A stretch of DNA of 29,076 nucleotides from a virus (Duplodnaviria > Caudoviricetes): the IMG/VR virus record IMGVR_UViG_3300022822_000068, positions 1 through 29,076 of that record; one strand, written 5' to 3'. The position numbers and the translations under genes were made by a program. Positions 8,094 to 29,076 of this stretch are shown here, piece by piece (the stretch's first letter is position 1; every line of letters starts with the position of its first letter). The notes under the pieces were generated by a model that was not told the origin of the DNA, ran no database searches, and saw nothing but the letters and a program-made list of their open reading frames with translations.

Positions 8094-9818
8094 ATGTCTA
8101 AAGAATTTATTGAAGCTAAATATAATAGTAATTCGCTTGACGTTGCAGTTAGGCAATATAATCAACTCTCATATTTTCTTCAATCACAGGTTTCAGAAGA
8201 TGTCAGAGAGGATTACTTTGAAAAATATGTAGAAAGAGGTCACTATACTAATGATATATTTCTTAATTGGGTAAAAAGCGTTTTCAAGACAGATAACTTT
8301 TTGTCTTTCGCTAAATATTACAGAAACCCAAACCCATCATCTAAACTTATTAATACAAGAATAAAAGAACCATTAAGTAGAGTTTTCTTTTCAGAAGACA
8401 GTTACTTTAATTACGTTGTTAATCAACAGTATATTGAGTTCCCACAAGAATTAAATGATAATTTTGAAGAAAGACTATTTGATGCTGTATTGTTTAGATA
8501 CAATGATATAATTGTACACGATTTATTTGAAAACAACAATCCTTACAGAGAGTTTGTTTCTATTAAAAATGTTGTTTCAATTAAAATGAACCATCAAAAA
8601 ATATCACAAATAGCTTACACCGCTACTGCAAACATTGACGGAGAAGAGGTTGTAGGTTATGCATACATTGATGATAATAAATATTGCTTTTTTAACAAAG
8701 AAAAAGATTTAGTTAAAGAAGAAAATCACGATTTAGGTTTTTGCCCTGCTACATTTGTGGTAGATAGTTCTTTCGGGAACGATATGATAATAAAAGAATC
8801 TACTTTTTCTTATTTAAAAGCTGACTTTGAAGAGTATTGCTTTTTAAAGACTTTACAAAGAATGGTAGATGCTAATGGTACTTTGCCTATAACCGTAAAG
8901 ATAAAGACTAATGAAAAGTCTAATCAATACGAAGACTTTGATAACAGAAGTGGTGAGCCAATGTCTATAGACCAAATAGGTAGTCAGGTTTCTAATGAAG
9001 TACGTTCTACATCAGGTAGTGGAAAAGGCTCTGTTTTACAGGCAGGTAGTGTTATAGAAACACCTCCTATTGAAAAGACAGATGGAAGCATAGATACTGA
9101 ATTTAACAAGAACTTTTTAACCTTTCATTACGCTCCAATTGAAGCATTAGAGTTTTTGGATAAAAGGATAAAATCTGTAGAAAAAGATATTATATTAAGT
9201 TCTATCGGAGATTTTTCAGAAGGTTCTGCTAAGGGTTCGAAAAGTGATGTAGAGATAAAATCTAGTGATATTGTTTCTAAACAAGATAAATTAAGGTTTT
9301 TATCTAATACTTTAAGTTCTTCTAGGGCTTTAAGTGATAAAGTAATGTTATCTTTAGCTTACGGTAAAGACAATGTAAAAGTAGATGTGTTTTATGGAAG
9401 TGATTTCTTTTTAGAAACTCAAGACAAGCTTTATGAGATGTTTCAAAACTCTCCCAATGCTATTGAGCGTAAAAACATTTTAATTAGATTGTCGCAACGT
9501 AGAAACATGTTTAACAAGGAGAAATCAAAGAGAGAAGTGTTGCTTTATAAGTTAATGCCATATACGAGTGATAAAGACTTTGAATTAGCAGTTGATAATG
9601 GAAGAATATCAGATGTTAACTTTGAATACCAATCAAGATTTTCTTATTGGGTTTCAAAGTTTGAATCTACTTATGGGAATATAGTTATATTCTATGATAA
9701 TTTAGGAAAAGCAAAAGAAAGTGAAAAGATTATCTCAATAGATAATTTAATAAACAGTTTAATAATAACTAATACTAATTTTAATAAAATAACCAATGGG
9801 AAAGAAACCAATAGTTAA
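8094..9818 (+). CDS. Putative portal protein
   Basis: 574 aa, between terminase and scaffold/capsid genes; call from size and synteny. Confidence 0.7.
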   Translation: MSKEFIEAKYNSNSLDVAVRQYNQLSYFLQSQVSEDVREDYFEKYVERGHYTNDIFLNWVKSVFKTDNFLSFAKYYRNPNPSSKLINTRIKEPLSRVFFSEDSYFNYVVNQQYIEFPQELNDNFEERLFDAVLFRYNDIIVHDLFENNNPYREFVSIKNVVSIKMNHQKISQIAYTATANIDGEEVVGYAYIDDNKYCFFNKEKDLVKEENHDLGFCPATFVVDSSFGNDMIIKESTFSYLKADFEEYCFLKTLQRMVDANGTLPITVKIKTNEKSNQYEDFDNRSGEPMSIDQIGSQVSNEVRSTSGSGKGSVLQAGSVIETPPIEKTDGSIDTEFNKNFLTFHYAPIEALEFLDKRIKSVEKDIILSSIGDFSEGSAKGSKSDVEIKSSDIVSKQDKLRFLSNTLSSSRALSDKVMLSLAYGKDNVKVDVFYGSDFFLETQDKLYEMFQNSPNAIERKNILIRLSQRRNMFNKEKSKREVLLYKLMPYTSDKDFELAVDNGRISDVNFEYQSRFSYWVSKFESTYGNIVIFYDNLGKAKESEKIISIDNLINSLIITNTNFNKITNGKETNS

Positions 9819-14750: not shown

Positions 14751-15677
14751 ATGGCAACAATAGCACAAATAACAAATTTAATAGATTGCGGTTTAGCTGC
14801 AACTTATGGTACAGGTAGTATTGGTTGTAAGGCATTTTTCAGAAATGTATCTTCGGCTTGGCTAACCCAAAGAGGTTTTAAATTCGATAAAGCAGAGGTT
14901 TTAGACGAAGAGTATATTCAAAAATTACAGGCAGAAGGAAAATTGGTAATCCTAAAAGGAATTACTGCTTTTACTGATAATTCAGAGGATATGGTTACAG
15001 AAACCTATGACGATGGAACAGAGCAATTAGTAAGAAAAGGAAAGTATAAATTCTTAATTGAGTTTGTAAATGGACTTTACTACCAAGCTGCTTTAAATTC
15101 TTTAAACTCACAAGAAGTTTATGATGTTTCTTTAGTTGATAGCGATAACAACATTTTAGGAACAATGGCACAAGATGGATCTGTTAAAGGTCTTTCAGCA
15201 GGTATGATTCAAGTATCTAAATATACTTTTGCAACAGGTTCAGCGGGTTCTAAACAAGGATTAAATATTCAGTTAACAGACCCTAATGAATTAGATGATG
15301 AATTTTCTTTTATTAGCGGAAAGTCTTTAGCACCTTACAAACCTAAAAATGCAGATGGTATTAATGAAGTTGTATTGGCTTACACAACTGCACCAGCAGA
15401 CGGGGCAACTTCTTTAGTAGTTAAAGCAACTATCAAACAAGGCGGTGGTTCTTTTAGTGGAGCAGTAGTTGGAGATTTCTTACTTACAGTAGACGGAGTA
15501 ACTACAAACCCAACTGCACTATCAGAGGTTTCAGGAACATATACGTTAACCGTATCTTCTAAATCTACAAATGAGGTTTTAGATTTAAGCATATATGATG
15601 TTTCAGAAAACAGAGATGTAATTGAGTTAGATAACGCTCTTTACAAGTCAAATACTTTATCTGCAACCGTAGTTTGA
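14751..15677 (+). CDS. Putative major tail tube protein (short form)
   Basis: 308 aa, beta-rich, Ig-like C-terminal part; lies between neck genes and tape measure; ends in TGA. Confidence 0.7.
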   Translation: MATIAQITNLIDCGLAATYGTGSIGCKAFFRNVSSAWLTQRGFKFDKAEVLDEEYIQKLQAEGKLVILKGITAFTDNSEDMVTETYDDGTEQLVRKGKYKFLIEFVNGLYYQAALNSLNSQEVYDVSLVDSDNNILGTMAQDGSVKGLSAGMIQVSKYTFATGSAGSKQGLNIQLTDPNELDDEFSFISGKSLAPYKPKNADGINEVVLAYTTAPADGATSLVVKATIKQGGGSFSGAVVGDFLLTVDGVTTNPTALSEVSGTYTLTVSSKSTNEVLDLSIYDVSENRDVIELDNALYKSNTLSATVV

Positions 15678-16388
15678 GTTCCAGTTCCAACTTTGCTTGA
15701 TGCTGCGATAGCTTACTATAAGTTCGATGAAACTTCTGGAACGTCACTAAAAGACGAAAAAGGAAGTCACAACGGAACTATTAATAACAATCCAACATTA
15801 AATGAAGACGGACTAATTGGTAGGGCTATTCGCTTCGGCAATGGTTCTAGCGACCAATCGGTTAGCTTGTCAGATAGTAATGACTTTAGCTTTACGAATG
15901 GGGTGAGCGATAAGCCTTTCAGTATTAGTACTTGGGTAAAACCTTCTGCTAGTTTCGGAAGTATGGTAGCTAAGTATTCTAATACTAATTCTGATAGAGA
16001 ATATAAATTATACGCTTCAAGTGGAACCGTATTCTTTACTATTCATTCGGAAGGTTCTGAGTCTGATAGACTACTTGTTAGGACAGACGATTCTCCTTTT
16101 GCATCAGATAGTACTTGGAGAAACATAATAGTTACTTATGATGGAAGTAGTTTAGAAGGTGGTTTATTAATGTATTACAACGGAGGTCTACAGGAATCAG
16201 GATTCGCTATAGGTAATTACGTTAAAATGATTAATACCAACCAAGATGTTATTATAGCAAATCAAACAGGAAATTCAAATGTTAGCTTGAACGCAGAAGT
16301 TGATGAGACAGCTATATTTAATAGAGTATTAACTCAATCAGAAGTTAATGAGATTTACAATGGGGGTTCAGGAATGAGTCTTGACTAA
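15678..16388 (+). CDS. LamG/concanavalin A-like lectin domain, probably a readthrough extension of the tail tube protein
   Basis: AYYKFDETSG..., FSISTWVK, WRNIIVTYDG, VDETAIFNRVLTQSEV are LamG_3 motifs; in frame with the tail tube gene directly after its TGA; only a TTG start (15693) near the 5' end. Confidence 0.8.
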   Translation, partial: VPVPTLLDAAIAYYKFDETSGTSLKDEKGSHNGTINNNPTLNEDGLIGRAIRFGNGSSDQSVSLSDSNDFSFTNGVSDKPFSISTWVKPSASFGSMVAKYSNTNSDREYKLYASSGTVFFTIHSEGSESDRLLVRTDDSPFASDSTWRNIIVTYDGSSLEGGLLMYYNGGLQESGFAIGNYVKMINTNQDVIIANQTGNSNVSLNAEVDETAIFNRVLTQSEVNEIYNGGSGMSLD

Positions 16389-16407: not shown

Positions 16408-16438
16408 AAAGCACCTAATTAACGTTAGGTGCTTTTTT
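16408..16438 (+). terminator. Rho-independent terminator of the head-neck-tube operon
   Basis: AAAGCACCTAA-TTAACG-TTAGGTGCTTT perfect stem followed by a T run. Confidence 0.85.
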
Positions 16439-16473: not shown

Positions 16474-17805
16474 ATGAAAAAAATTCGTAAAAGACTTTAC
16501 CCTAATGAAGCAACTTTATTAGGATTAGATTTAAACAACAATGACATAGGAAGAGAAACTGCCAGATATCGTTTAGAGGTTTTTCAAGTAGAAATAATAG
16601 ATAATTTAAGAAAAGAACAAAAATGCAAAAAACAAAAAGTTACACAAAAAAATCAAAATCAACTAAACCAAAACCAAAACCAAAACCAAGTAAAAAATAC
16701 TAGTAAGACAAGTGCAAACGATTATAAAGAAGAAGAGTTTTTCTTATCTGCATACGATAGAGAAACAAAGAGCATTTTAAGTATTGAGGATTTCTGTAAA
16801 AAATACAATCAACCTTTTGAGAATTTAAGTTCTCATAAATTTTTACCGTACCACTACAAAGAACCTTCTTACAATATTGTTTTTAAACCTCAATTAGCAA
16901 TAAATGATCAATTAGATACTTTTGATTTTGATGAAATTATAAAAAAACATATTAAACCCATAAAGCAAAAACAATATTTTGCAAAAATAGGTGACAAAGA
17001 TTTTGATTCATTAACTGTCACAGATGTTCATATAGGTATGGATTCTGACATTGACAACAATACAATGTATGAAAAGGAGTGGAATAAAGAGGAGTTACTT
17101 AAAAGTGCTGACTTAGTCATTAAGGAAACATTAAAGGAGCAAGAAAGTAGTATTTTATACTTAGATGATTTAGGAGATTTGTTAGATGGTTTTAATGCAC
17201 AGACAACAAGAGGAGGACATGAATTACCTCAAAACATGACAAATGAGCAATGCTTTGATGCTGCTTTAGAATTTAAACTTAGAATACTGTATGGTTTAAT
17301 AAATAATTACGATACTATACATTTTAACAATATTTGCAATGACAATCATTCAGGAGCGTTTGGGTATTTTGTAAACGAAGCATTTAAAAAAATAGCAGAG
17401 ATACAATTTAAAGATAAAGTTACTGTAACAAATCATAGAAAATTTATAAACCACTATTTCGTAGGAGATATTTGTTTTTTAATTTCACACGGTAAAGATG
17501 ACAAAAGTTTGAAGTTTGGTTTTAAACCTCATTTAGATTTAAAAGGTGCTGATAAGATAGACCAATATTGTAAGCAATACGGTATTTACAAGACCGCTAA
17601 GCTAATAATATTTAAAAAAGGTGATAGTCATCAAGCGTTATTTGATATGTGTACTTCTGACGATTTCTATTACTTTAATTACCCTGCATTATCACCAAGT
17701 TCTAATTGGATTAAAAATAATTTTAAATTAGGTAGAAGAGGATTTATAAATGAATCTTTTAAAGGCTTAAAAAACTATTTAAAACCTAATTTTATAATAA
17801 AATAA
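16474..17805 (+). CDS. Calcineurin-like metallophosphoesterase with N-terminal extension
   Basis: Motifs TDVHIG, LGDLLDG, NDNH, SHG, GDSH in canonical order. Confidence 0.8.
   Translation: MKKIRKRLYPNEATLLGLDLNNNDIGRETARYRLEVFQVEIIDNLRKEQKCKKQKVTQKNQNQLNQNQNQNQVKNTSKTSANDYKEEEFFLSAYDRETKSILSIEDFCKKYNQPFENLSSHKFLPYHYKEPSYNIVFKPQLAINDQLDTFDFDEIIKKHIKPIKQKQYFAKIGDKDFDSLTVTDVHIGMDSDIDNNTMYEKEWNKEELLKSADLVIKETLKEQESSILYLDDLGDLLDGFNAQTTRGGHELPQNMTNEQCFDAALEFKLRILYGLINNYDTIHFNNICNDNHSGAFGYFVNEAFKKIAEIQFKDKVTVTNHRKFINHYFVGDICFLISHGKDDKSLKFGFKPHLDLKGADKIDQYCKQYGIYKTAKLIIFKKGDSHQALFDMCTSDDFYYFNYPALSPSSNWIKNNFKLGRRGFINESFKGLKNYLKPNFIIK
16651..16689 (+). repeat. In-frame hexamer repeat encoding an NQ tract
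   Basis: AATCAA x2, then AACCAA x4 perfect (16666-16689). Confidence 0.8.
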
Positions 17806-26870: not shown

Positions 26871-29076
26871 ATGGCAACAGACACTCAATTAGCACAAATA
26901 TTACAAATAATTGGAAACTCTAAATTATTTAGCGAATTATCAGAACAAACTGTACTAACAGACGATAGTTTTTTTGCAAGTATAAATACGGGTACAGAAG
27001 ATGCTAAGAAAATAAAAATACCTTTATTAAGAGGATTTAGCGGAGATTGGAACGCAGATACAAATACACCTAATCTATCAAATGGATCAGGTGTTTCTGG
27101 AACTGTTTATAAAATTAATGTTGCAGGTAGTCAGGATTTAGGAAATGGAACTGTAGATTATGTTGTAGATCAACTTATATATTATAATAGTTCTCAATGG
27201 GTGAAACTAAGTCAATCTAAAATATCTGACATAACGGGTCTTCGAGAGGAACTAGATACTCTTCAAGAAAATATTGACGCAGAAGCTATTACTAGAGGTG
27301 ACGCAGATACAACTTTACAAACAAACATTAACAACGTAGAGCAAAGCCTTGAAGATAATGTTCAAGCTGAACAAGATGCAAGGATTGCAGAAGATATTGT
27401 TTTACAGGAAAACATAGATACAGAATCAACCACTAGAAGTGATGCAGATGTAGCCTTACAGGGCAATATAGATGCAGAAGCTTCTACTAGACAAAGTTCA
27501 GATACTACTTTACAATCTAACATTGATTTAAAAATAGATATTGCAAGTATTGTAGACAACGTAACCGCTGGGGGTTCTGGCGTTCCTTTATCAGCAGAAC
27601 AAGGAAAAGTGCTAAAAGCTGAAATACTAGCCTTAGAGGGTTCTTTAATACCGCAAGGCAATTGGGATGCAGACACAAATACGCCAGATATTTCAGGAAC
27701 GACTGAAACAGGTTATTTTTGGATAGTATCGATTGAAGGTTCCACAGATATTGGTGGAATTACTGATTGGAAAGTAAATGATTGGGTAATAAAAACCGCT
27801 GATGGTTTTGCTAAAATTGACAATACTGATAAAGTTATTAGTGTATCTGGTAAAATTGGTGAAGTTGTTTTAGCTAAAGCAGATGTAGGATTGTCTAATG
27901 TAGATAATACAACGGATGCAAATAAACCTATTTCAACCGCACAACAAAACGCCTTAGATTTAAAAGCAAATTTAGCGGGAGGTAACACTATAACAGGAGA
28001 ACAAAAACATAATAATTCAGGAACAGGAACAGCAATAGATGTAAATAATACAAGTACAGGTACGGGTATTGATGTATTAAACAATTTAGGAGGTTTTGGT
28101 TTATATGTAAATAATAACGGAACAGGAAGTGCTATTGAGGTAGCGGGTACAAGTTCGGGTTTTAATTTCGTTGGAAAAGACAATGCGGTAAACACTTTTA
28201 CAGTAGATAAAGAGGGTAATGTTATAGGTTTAAGTTTTTCTGGAGATGGTTCTTTATTGACCAATATGCCTGTAAGTTCGGCACAACAAACCGCTTTAGA
28301 TTTAAAAGCAAATAAAGCTTCACCAAGTTTTACAGGAGATGCCACCTTTGAGAGTAATATTAATACTGCTGGTGACGGTAATTTTAACGATTTAATTGTT
28401 GGTAGAGCAGAAAGCGGTGGAACCGATAGTGGTAATTTATATTTTTCCGAAGATAGGGATTTTGCTTGGGGGGTTGTTGGTTTTGGAGGTTTTCGTTTTA
28501 ATTTAAATGGTGCAACAAACGACTTAAAATTTCAATCAAGGGTTGGCACATCAACGGCAAAAGATATTTTTACAGTTAATAGAGATAATGCTGACTTTCT
28601 TGTTCATAATGACTTCGAAACAACAGGCAACGCCACTTTTGGGGGTGATGTAGAAATAGACAAAGGTGATTTAAGTAGGTTGAGGATTTCAGGGAATGGA
28701 AATAATGGTGCTGATAACGAGTTTGGGACTATTGAATTTTTCAACAAAGATACATCTGGTTCTTCTCCTAACGTAGCTTCTTCAATAAAAGCTTTATCTT
28801 CATCTTCTACAGGTTCAGGTGGGTTTTTAACCTTCTCTACAAGTGTAGGAAATGAAGCGGAGGGAACTGATGCAATCGAAAGGATGCGTATTGATGCAAA
28901 CGGCGATTTCGACTTCAAGTCAGGCAACGCCACTTTTGGGGGTGATGTATCTTTATTGTCAGGTTACACTTCTACAGGTGTATATCCTGTAGAAAAAGGT
29001 ATTACGTTTCAAACAACGAACGGAAGTAGTGTATGGAAAACAGGTGAGATATTAGGTTATGTAAAAGCAAACAATG
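26871..29076 (+). CDS. Tail fibre / receptor-binding protein, 3' partial (absent from ORF track, runs off window)
   Basis: Open from ATG 26871 to window end: MATDTQLAQILQII...; two W(N/D)ADTNTP domains, 18-aa coiled-coil repeats, KADVGLSNVDNTTDANKPISTAQQNALDLK fibre motif, ERMRIDANG. Confidence 0.9.
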   Translation, partial: MATDTQLAQILQIIGNSKLFSELSEQTVLTDDSFFASINTGTEDAKKIKIPLLRGFSGDWNADTNTPNLSNGSGVSGTVYKINVAGSQDLGNGTVDYVVDQLIYYNSSQWVKLSQSKISDITGLREELDTLQENIDAEAITRGDADTTLQTNINNVEQSLEDNVQAEQDARIAEDIVLQENIDTESTTRSDADVALQGNIDAEASTRQSSDTTLQSNIDLKIDIASIVDNVTAGGSGVPLSAEQGKVLKAEILALEGSLIPQGNWDADTNTPDISGTTETGYFWIVSIEGSTDIGGITDWKVNDWVIKTADGFAKIDNTDKVISVSGKIGEVVLAKADVGLSNVDNTTDANKPISTAQQNALDLKANLAGGNTITGEQKHNNSGTGTAIDVNNTSTGTGIDVLNNLGGFGLYVNNNGTGSAIEVAGTSSGFNFVGKDNAVNTFTVDKEGNVIGLSFSGDGSLLTNMPVSSAQQTALDLKANKASPSFTGDATFESNINTAGDGNFNDLIVGRAESGGTDSGNLYFSEDRDFAWGVVGFGGFRFNLNGATNDLKFQSRVGTSTAKDIFTVNRDNADFLVHNDFETTGNATFGGDVEIDKGDLSRLRISGNGNNGADNEFGTIEFFNKDTSGSSPNVASSIKALSSSSTGSGGFLTFSTSVGNEAEGTDAIERMRIDANGDFDFKSGNATFGGDVSLLSGYTSTGVYPVEKGITFQTTNGSSVWKTGEILGYVKANN
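27939..28313 (+). repeat. 33-bp near-identical direct repeat (27939-27971 and 28281-28313)
   Basis: GCACAACAAA(A/C)CGC(C/T)TTAGATTTAAAAGCAAAT, 31/33 identical, 342 bp apart (in frame). Confidence 0.85.
28624..28949 (+). repeat. 29-bp perfect direct repeat (28624-28652 and 28921-28949)
   Basis: CAGGCAACGCCACTTTTGGGGGTGATGTA twice, 297 bp apart (in frame), encoding GNATFGGDV. Confidence 0.9.

Follow-up and report, generated by a model that had tools for sequence, protein, structure and literature searches.

The window (the whole stretch of 29,076 nucleotides that was analysed) carries terminase and portal genes, and so belongs to a tailed DNA phage. At the locus of interest a tail tube gene is followed by TGA, a linker of five codons, a LamG coding stretch, TAA and a terminator, in one frame and on one strand. 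The features and their positions are summarized in Table 1.

Table 1. Features of the tail tube–LamG locus (positions in the window; L124 is the second carrier described below)
Feature	Position	Strand	Basis or remark
Gene of the tail tube (major tail) protein, 308 aa; a tube domain, then a beta-rich (Ig-like) one at the C-terminus	14751..15674	+	Fold search, gene order
GTT TGA G (last Val codon, UGA stop, +4 G)	15672..15678	+	Unchanged in L124; left boundary of the cassette
Five-codon linker VPVPT (EDIPT in L124)	15678..15692	+	Equal length in both carriers, with differences at 7 of the first 9 bases
Predicted extended stem-loop, candidate readthrough stimulator	15686..15812 (core 15692-15806)	+	Folding of both carriers
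LamG (Laminin_G_3, concanavalin A-like) domain, ends TAA	15693..16388	+	Pfam; 72% identical, gap-free, to L124:2995-3702
39-base block, 13 codons, identical in both carriers	15858..15896 (L124 3175-3213)	+	Permutation p 0.003
Intrinsic terminator-like hairpin	16408..16435	+	Directly after the tube stop in cassette-free relatives

The upstream gene had been taken for a tail tube in an earlier note on this DNA, and a fold search backs that identity. An AlphaFold model of the protein (pLDDT 81.9) has tail chains of lambda gpV, T5 and Chi as its top five Foldseek rows, with E values from 7.8e-6 to 5.4e-5. The best match is lambda gpV (E = 7.8e-6), while the TM scores of the top five reach just 0.25–0.28 over the two-domain model. 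The neighbouring genes have portal, head and tail PHROG matches. A protein of Polaribacter phages P12002L/S matches the window tube at 51% and lies in the same gene order, which in P12002L runs ahead of an annotated tape measure gene. Since these are the nearest cultured relatives, the host of the window phage is probably flavobacterial. The C-terminus of the tube evidently tolerates extension, as a distant relative of 406 aa (P0139) has a He_PIG-like Ig domain (Pfam match below cut-off) fused at the same end by sense codons. Among the best 150 tube representatives one is longer than 325 aa. No fused tube was found at 546–2000 aa, a search range that leaves out a form of 545 aa.

The junction reads ACC GTA GTT TGA GTT CCA GTT CCA ACT TTG CTT GAT. 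From the TGA at 15675-15677 onward, 236 in-frame codons stay open up to the TAA at 16386-16388, and the +1 and +2 frames close after 10 and 6 codons. The single TGA between tube and LamG in one frame is thus as the earlier note had it. So is its remark that all other called genes end in TAA or TAG, which is true of the 28 others among the 29 complete plus-strand ORFs picked as genes (TAA 26, TAG 2, TGA 1, the last being the tube gene). The terminator also lies after LamG as had been said; a hairpin scan, in which the overall number of sites was not above that in shuffles, gave no terminator hairpin between tube and LamG. From the junction the product would have 308 aa on stopping at the TGA, 545 aa on reading through it and 543 aa on hopping over it.

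The TGA is a secure reading. No other letter is present at the site in the contigs of all four runs that span the whole stretch, although these runs are possibly the source of the window and contigs lose rare variants. TGA is also read in two further assemblies (L001 and L064). All 38 near relatives of the tube have 305–311 aa, so that the TGA lies at the normal end of the family. We therefore rejected a sequencing error or fresh nonsense mutation, the TGA being present in three assemblies.

Downstream of the TGA, Laminin_G_3 of Pfam matches with E = 4.6e-17, above cut-off. By its fold class the extension appears to be of the adhesion or carbohydrate-binding type. In viral contigs this LamG stretch has one close relative, 72% identical (L124/L125), which follows a 184-aa gene that is itself behind a capsid-like gene. 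Its junction reads ACT GTT TGA GAG GAT ATA CCA ACA CTG CTT GAT. The same unit of TGA, linker and LamG is therefore present behind a different tube. Again 236 in-frame codons are open after the TGA, a length equal to that of the window, and the other frames close after 10 and 6 codons as they do there. A frameshift was therefore rejected, there being no open shifted frame in either carrier. The two LamG sequences align free of gaps with dN = 0.19 and dS = 1.05 (dN/dS = 0.18), and they must therefore be working coding sequence under purifying selection. Codons 1–63, which precede the first ATG, GTG or TTG in L124, have dN/dS = 0.23. In the window the first ATG after the stop is codon 96.

The tubes of the two carriers are dissimilar. 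The window tube and the 184-aa protein have no profile similarity (hhalign probability 2%). A model of the latter (pLDDT 63) matches the SPP1 tail tube with Z = 7.5 and rmsd 4.0 over 126 aligned residues; tubes and Hcp dominate its structure matches, with Z under 8 on a moderate model. Nonlabens phage P12024S (L352) has two distinct matches to the 184-aa tube, separated by about 3 kb, and so has each of two genomes, G498 and G665 (loci L357-L360). These are possibly two tube-fold paralogues.

We have read the stop codons of both tube families. Of the 122 loci of the 308-aa family (L001-L122), 12 are short of the C-terminus and 4 lack a stop, and the 106 usable loci give 71 distinct ends. These comprise 60 TAA, 10 TAG and a single TGA, the window's own. 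For the 184-aa family the best 80 of 383 loci were taken. Two are without a stop, and the remaining 78 give 54 distinct ends, 53 with TAA and one, that of the L124 phage, with TGA. TGA therefore occurs among the tube ends read only in the two carriers of the cassette. The in-frame TGA that the earlier note proposed to look for in homologous loci is conserved to that extent, in the second carrier; cassette-free relatives end in TAA or TAG. Tube relatives were also present in 4 and 2 genomes of two samples of 401 genomes each. Nine tube loci were obtained from these, of which three were dropped, and all six in the correct frame end in TAA. L042 was rejected as a carrier because the 116 open codons after its TAA include the ATG of the next gene.

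The edges of the cassette are seen in a close sibling of the window phage, present as one contig of depth 5.6 in run X6. It differs from the window in 17 letters over 15207-15673 (467 positions, ~96% identical), and departs after 15673. There its tube ends GTA TAG, and after 25 other letters it rejoins the window at 16408, at the terminator. The sibling thus has the same terminator and is without the LamG stretch. LamG is therefore an optional insert, with the stop codon as its left edge. It follows that the native stop itself is exchanged when the cassette is swapped, something not needed for a free-standing gene. Cassette-free relatives have a terminator-like hairpin some tens of bases after the tube stop, and by eye the hairpins of L002 and L067 resemble the one behind LamG in the window.

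The terminator of L124 is, by eye, like the type of the 308-aa family and unlike the one found in its kin; beyond it the sequence is again that of the kin. This suggests that TGA, LamG and terminator moved together from the 308-aa family into the L124 lineage. The TGA common to both carriers is shared by descent and counts as one origin kept through a dS of about 1, not as two. The two phages do exchange DNA, given that 502 bases at 92.6% are common to a tail-fibre-like gene of both (G001 8847-9348, G002 16852-17353), and the exchange hints at a common host. In the window this match lies at about 27500-28000; the head and tube genes of the carriers are dissimilar.

Viral contigs gave no carrier beyond the two phages, whether searched with the LamG protein (11 loci), a LamG alignment (22 loci), a pattern of GTTTGA plus LamG (107 loci), a DNA motif common to both (3 loci) or a pattern for the 184-aa family (119 loci). 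The last of these gave 81 distinct ends (TAA 75, TAG 3, TGA 3), and two of the three TGA ends are not of tube genes, as judged by eye. GenBank phages likewise gave no further carrier, the match in Peternella_1 lying within a gene of 679 codons.

The RNA behind the UGA is predicted to fold. A stretch of 121 bases starting at 15690 folds with z = −3.7, and its counterpart in L124 with z = −3.1. The two carriers folded separately have 22 pairs in common in the same register. A consensus fold of the two has 34 pairs, five of which are changed on both sides. A helix of three pairs comes first, 8 nt from the stop, with the main helix at 14 nt, and the fold ends at base 138. In the basal helix +18 to +25 pair with +125 to +132 (U of UGA = +1). 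Of these pairs, two carry changes in both partners and two in one partner, and a mismatch has turned into a pair, in a place where the protein differs.

Several controls bear on this prediction. Synonymous permutation of the stretch gave 3 and 14 of 1000. Scanning along the cassette, z was below −3 in both carriers in one of 40 folding windows, and none of 170 joint synonymous permutations reached the common pairs or the summed energy (taking the maximum over 10 windows). Taken one at a time, 5 of 130 folding windows over ordinary coding sequence also attain z = −3. A control in which the pair was shuffled gave 19 of 500, and the consensus energy is weak at −10.6 kcal/mol. The position folded was initially picked after a fold had been seen. 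Near the site Rfam gave no match besides one chance hit. Resting on a comparison of two sequences, the stem-loop is a good lead for a stimulator of readthrough, not proof of one.

UGA is little used in these phages. In the 49.8-kb phage contig that matches the window (G001, rated 99% complete) one of 61 ORFs has another TGA stop, and in G002 one of 21, both as ATGA overlaps with the next gene. In Flavobacterium johnsoniae UGA makes up 7% of stops, and coverage of prfB is four- to eightfold below that of prfA (PMC10798248). UGA is therefore plausibly the slowest stop in flavobacterial hosts.

We think it probable that LamG forms an exchangeable cassette and is expressed through readthrough of the UGA, which would give a minor tube subunit of 545 aa. 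Readthrough adding LamG to the tube was one of two routes proposed in the earlier note. As a proposed mechanism it is well supported by comparison, namely by the second carrier, by purifying selection, by replacement of the stop at the cassette edge and by the TTG not being kept. A low level of RF2 in the flavobacterial host, as the F. johnsoniae literature would suggest, could make UGA a weak stop, and the predicted stem-loop from 8–14 nt after it may slow termination. A near-cognate tRNA, most likely that of Trp, might then be used in a few percent of events, judging by Q-beta. The junction peptide of the readthrough product would be SNTLSATVV-X-VPVPTLLDAAIAYYK, in which X could be W, C, R or another residue. 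Long subunits could co-assemble with short ones as optional, low-copy, glycan-binding decorations. Transfer of the cassette from phage to phage would occur by recombination, with crossovers at the last Val codon and at the terminator, and would replace the native TAA or TAG. The base at +4 is G in both carriers, whereas the leaky context named in reviews has C.

A broader proposal is somewhat short of an even chance. It holds that the cassette is a mobile recoding module, comprising a leaky UGA, its own RNA stimulator, a lectin domain and a terminator, that can be placed onto the last codon of any tube gene, with a rate possibly tied to RF2 of the host. If that were true, a phage newly receiving it would at once gain a low-copy glycan-binding decoration, and stop-codon readthrough stimulated by RNA structure would operate on bacterial ribosomes in a tailed DNA phage.

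The main rival is that LamG is a separate gene, for which ribosomes that have finished the tube re-initiate at TTG 15693 (CTG in L124); this would yield little free protein, maybe bound to the virion non-covalently. Both codons are permitted starts. In both carriers the base at −3 is A, a determinant that promotes initiation in F. johnsoniae (PMC6847099). Scored with a matrix built on the starts of the window itself, the TTG context reaches a low −6.1, yet four of the 29 real ATG starts are lower still. Gene callers annotate LamG in this way (P0039, P0203), and stand-alone LamG genes of 230–260 aa that begin near the same place are common. Yet the 28 other called genes all begin with ATG, and the 30 bases 5′ of the TTG have 53% A+T compared with 67–93% before the 28 ATG starts, confirming the remark in the earlier note that an A/T-rich leader is missing. 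Codon 6 after the stop differs between the carriers, a change that is silent if both codons are read as Leu. The 15-base spacer has diverged in 7 of its first 9 bases and yet keeps frame, length and Pro-Thr. The start codon is also paired within the predicted stem in both carriers, and the native stop has been swapped for TGA exactly at the edge of the cassette. We therefore regard a separate start as unlikely, if clearly ahead of the other alternatives.

A further alternative is that a minority allele, carrying the sense codon TGG at this site, is the sole source of the long form, or that the cassette is silent cargo between such events. The protein collection does hold fused proteins with W at the junction, P0205 (545 aa) and P0211 (421 aa). 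These are otherwise letter-identical to the TGA-bearing genes, however, and come from short contigs (4501 and 3542 bases). All identical tube loci fetched read TGA, and the contigs of the four runs are without the variant. Nor is dN/dS = 0.18 expected of silent cargo. The two entries are most likely gene calls made with genetic code table 4 on short contigs, and we consider the allele improbable. If they are such calls, entries of this kind could reveal more cases of readthrough.

A stop hop was the second route of the earlier note. Peptidyl-tRNA-Val would leave GTT, skip the UGA and land on the next GTT to give 543 aa, and the stop is indeed bracketed by identical GTT codons in the window. 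The bracketing loses its force, however, as GTT is the commonest Val codon there (276 of 8475 codons, 3.3%) and the downstream one is absent from L124. In L124 GAG follows the TGA and the first in-frame Val codon comes at about codon 34, so that a hop is not conserved and was set aside as very improbable. According to a 2016 review, no natural in-frame stop hop was known (PMC5009743).

Least probable of all is that UGA is reassigned or specially decoded (a code 4/25 genome, a phage suppressor tRNA or selenocysteine): the frame is open under TGA = W, which alone shows nothing, while a single plus-strand open frame of at least 80 codons ends in TGA, TGG is used 74 times, the other TGAs of G001 and G002 act as stops in ATGA overlaps, and there is no tRNA gene in G001 (99% complete), G002 or G003.

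Recoded tail decorations of tailed phages have been described as frameshift products, and in-frame readthrough is textbook knowledge for Q-beta. In lactococcal phages of the 936 group, TpeX places a carbohydrate-binding module on a share of the major tail proteins (MTPs), and one TpeX bound host cells (PMC6669499). As at our locus, the extension follows an Ig-like domain, in TpeX one of the adhesin kind, and occurs in part of the group; TpeX is, however, BppA-like and made by programmed frameshift, whereas the window extension is LamG, in frame behind UGA, and found on two dissimilar tubes. SPP1 has short and long tube subunits (gp17.1 and gp17.1*) at 3:1, the FN3 domain of the latter being dispensable and proposed to bind cell-wall carbohydrate (PMC8718954). 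Two tube subunits from one gene are proven in SPP1 virions and proposed for the window, but gp17.1* arises by ribosomal frameshift and adds an FN3 domain of about 100 aa, in contrast to LamG in frame 0.

The coat protein of Q-beta is extended to A1, a minor virion protein, by about 5% readthrough of a single UGA (PMC7026636, Table 1). There too one in-frame UGA separates a major structural gene from a conserved coding extension. Q-beta is a single-stranded RNA phage, however, and that table lists A1 as needed for infectious particles, while the LamG cassette is absent from siblings. In alphaviruses and Virgaviridae a 3′ stem 7–9 nt after UGA, spanning about 100–140 nt and marked by compensatory changes, raises readthrough up to 10-fold (PMC3159437). 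The spacing and extent of the predicted window fold are similar. Those viruses use eukaryotic ribosomes and mostly UGA-C, whereas the window has bacterial ribosomes, UGA-G and a fold predicted from two sequences.

We found no report of a structural protein of tailed DNA phages made by readthrough in the open-licence literature. If LamG is added to the tube in this way, readthrough would be a third route for these phages. It would be invisible to gene callers, which split the locus in two or mis-call the genetic code. Unrelated phages of one habitat could swap adhesion modules and leave the essential tube unharmed. The two carriers together with the cassette-free sibling are a clean set for comparison supplied by nature. 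With the predicted stem-loop, stimulation of bacterial readthrough by 3′ RNA structure becomes directly testable in F. johnsoniae, for which reporters exist.

Some smaller observations remain. The identical 39-base block stands out from the rest of the LamG stretches, which are 75% identical, and it is also present as a separate 39-base contig of higher depth. It would be either a recent gene conversion between both phages or a distal RNA-level element. RNA-library contigs (X5, X7) contain pieces of the LamG stretch, none across the junction, and were left out of the evidence. Downstream of the tube terminator and ahead of the next tail gene, an ORF of 443 aa at 16474-17805 is weakly matched by a DNA repair exonuclease of PHROG. 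The corresponding slot of P12002L is filled by an HNH endonuclease, and from this comparison it appears to be a variable insertion site.
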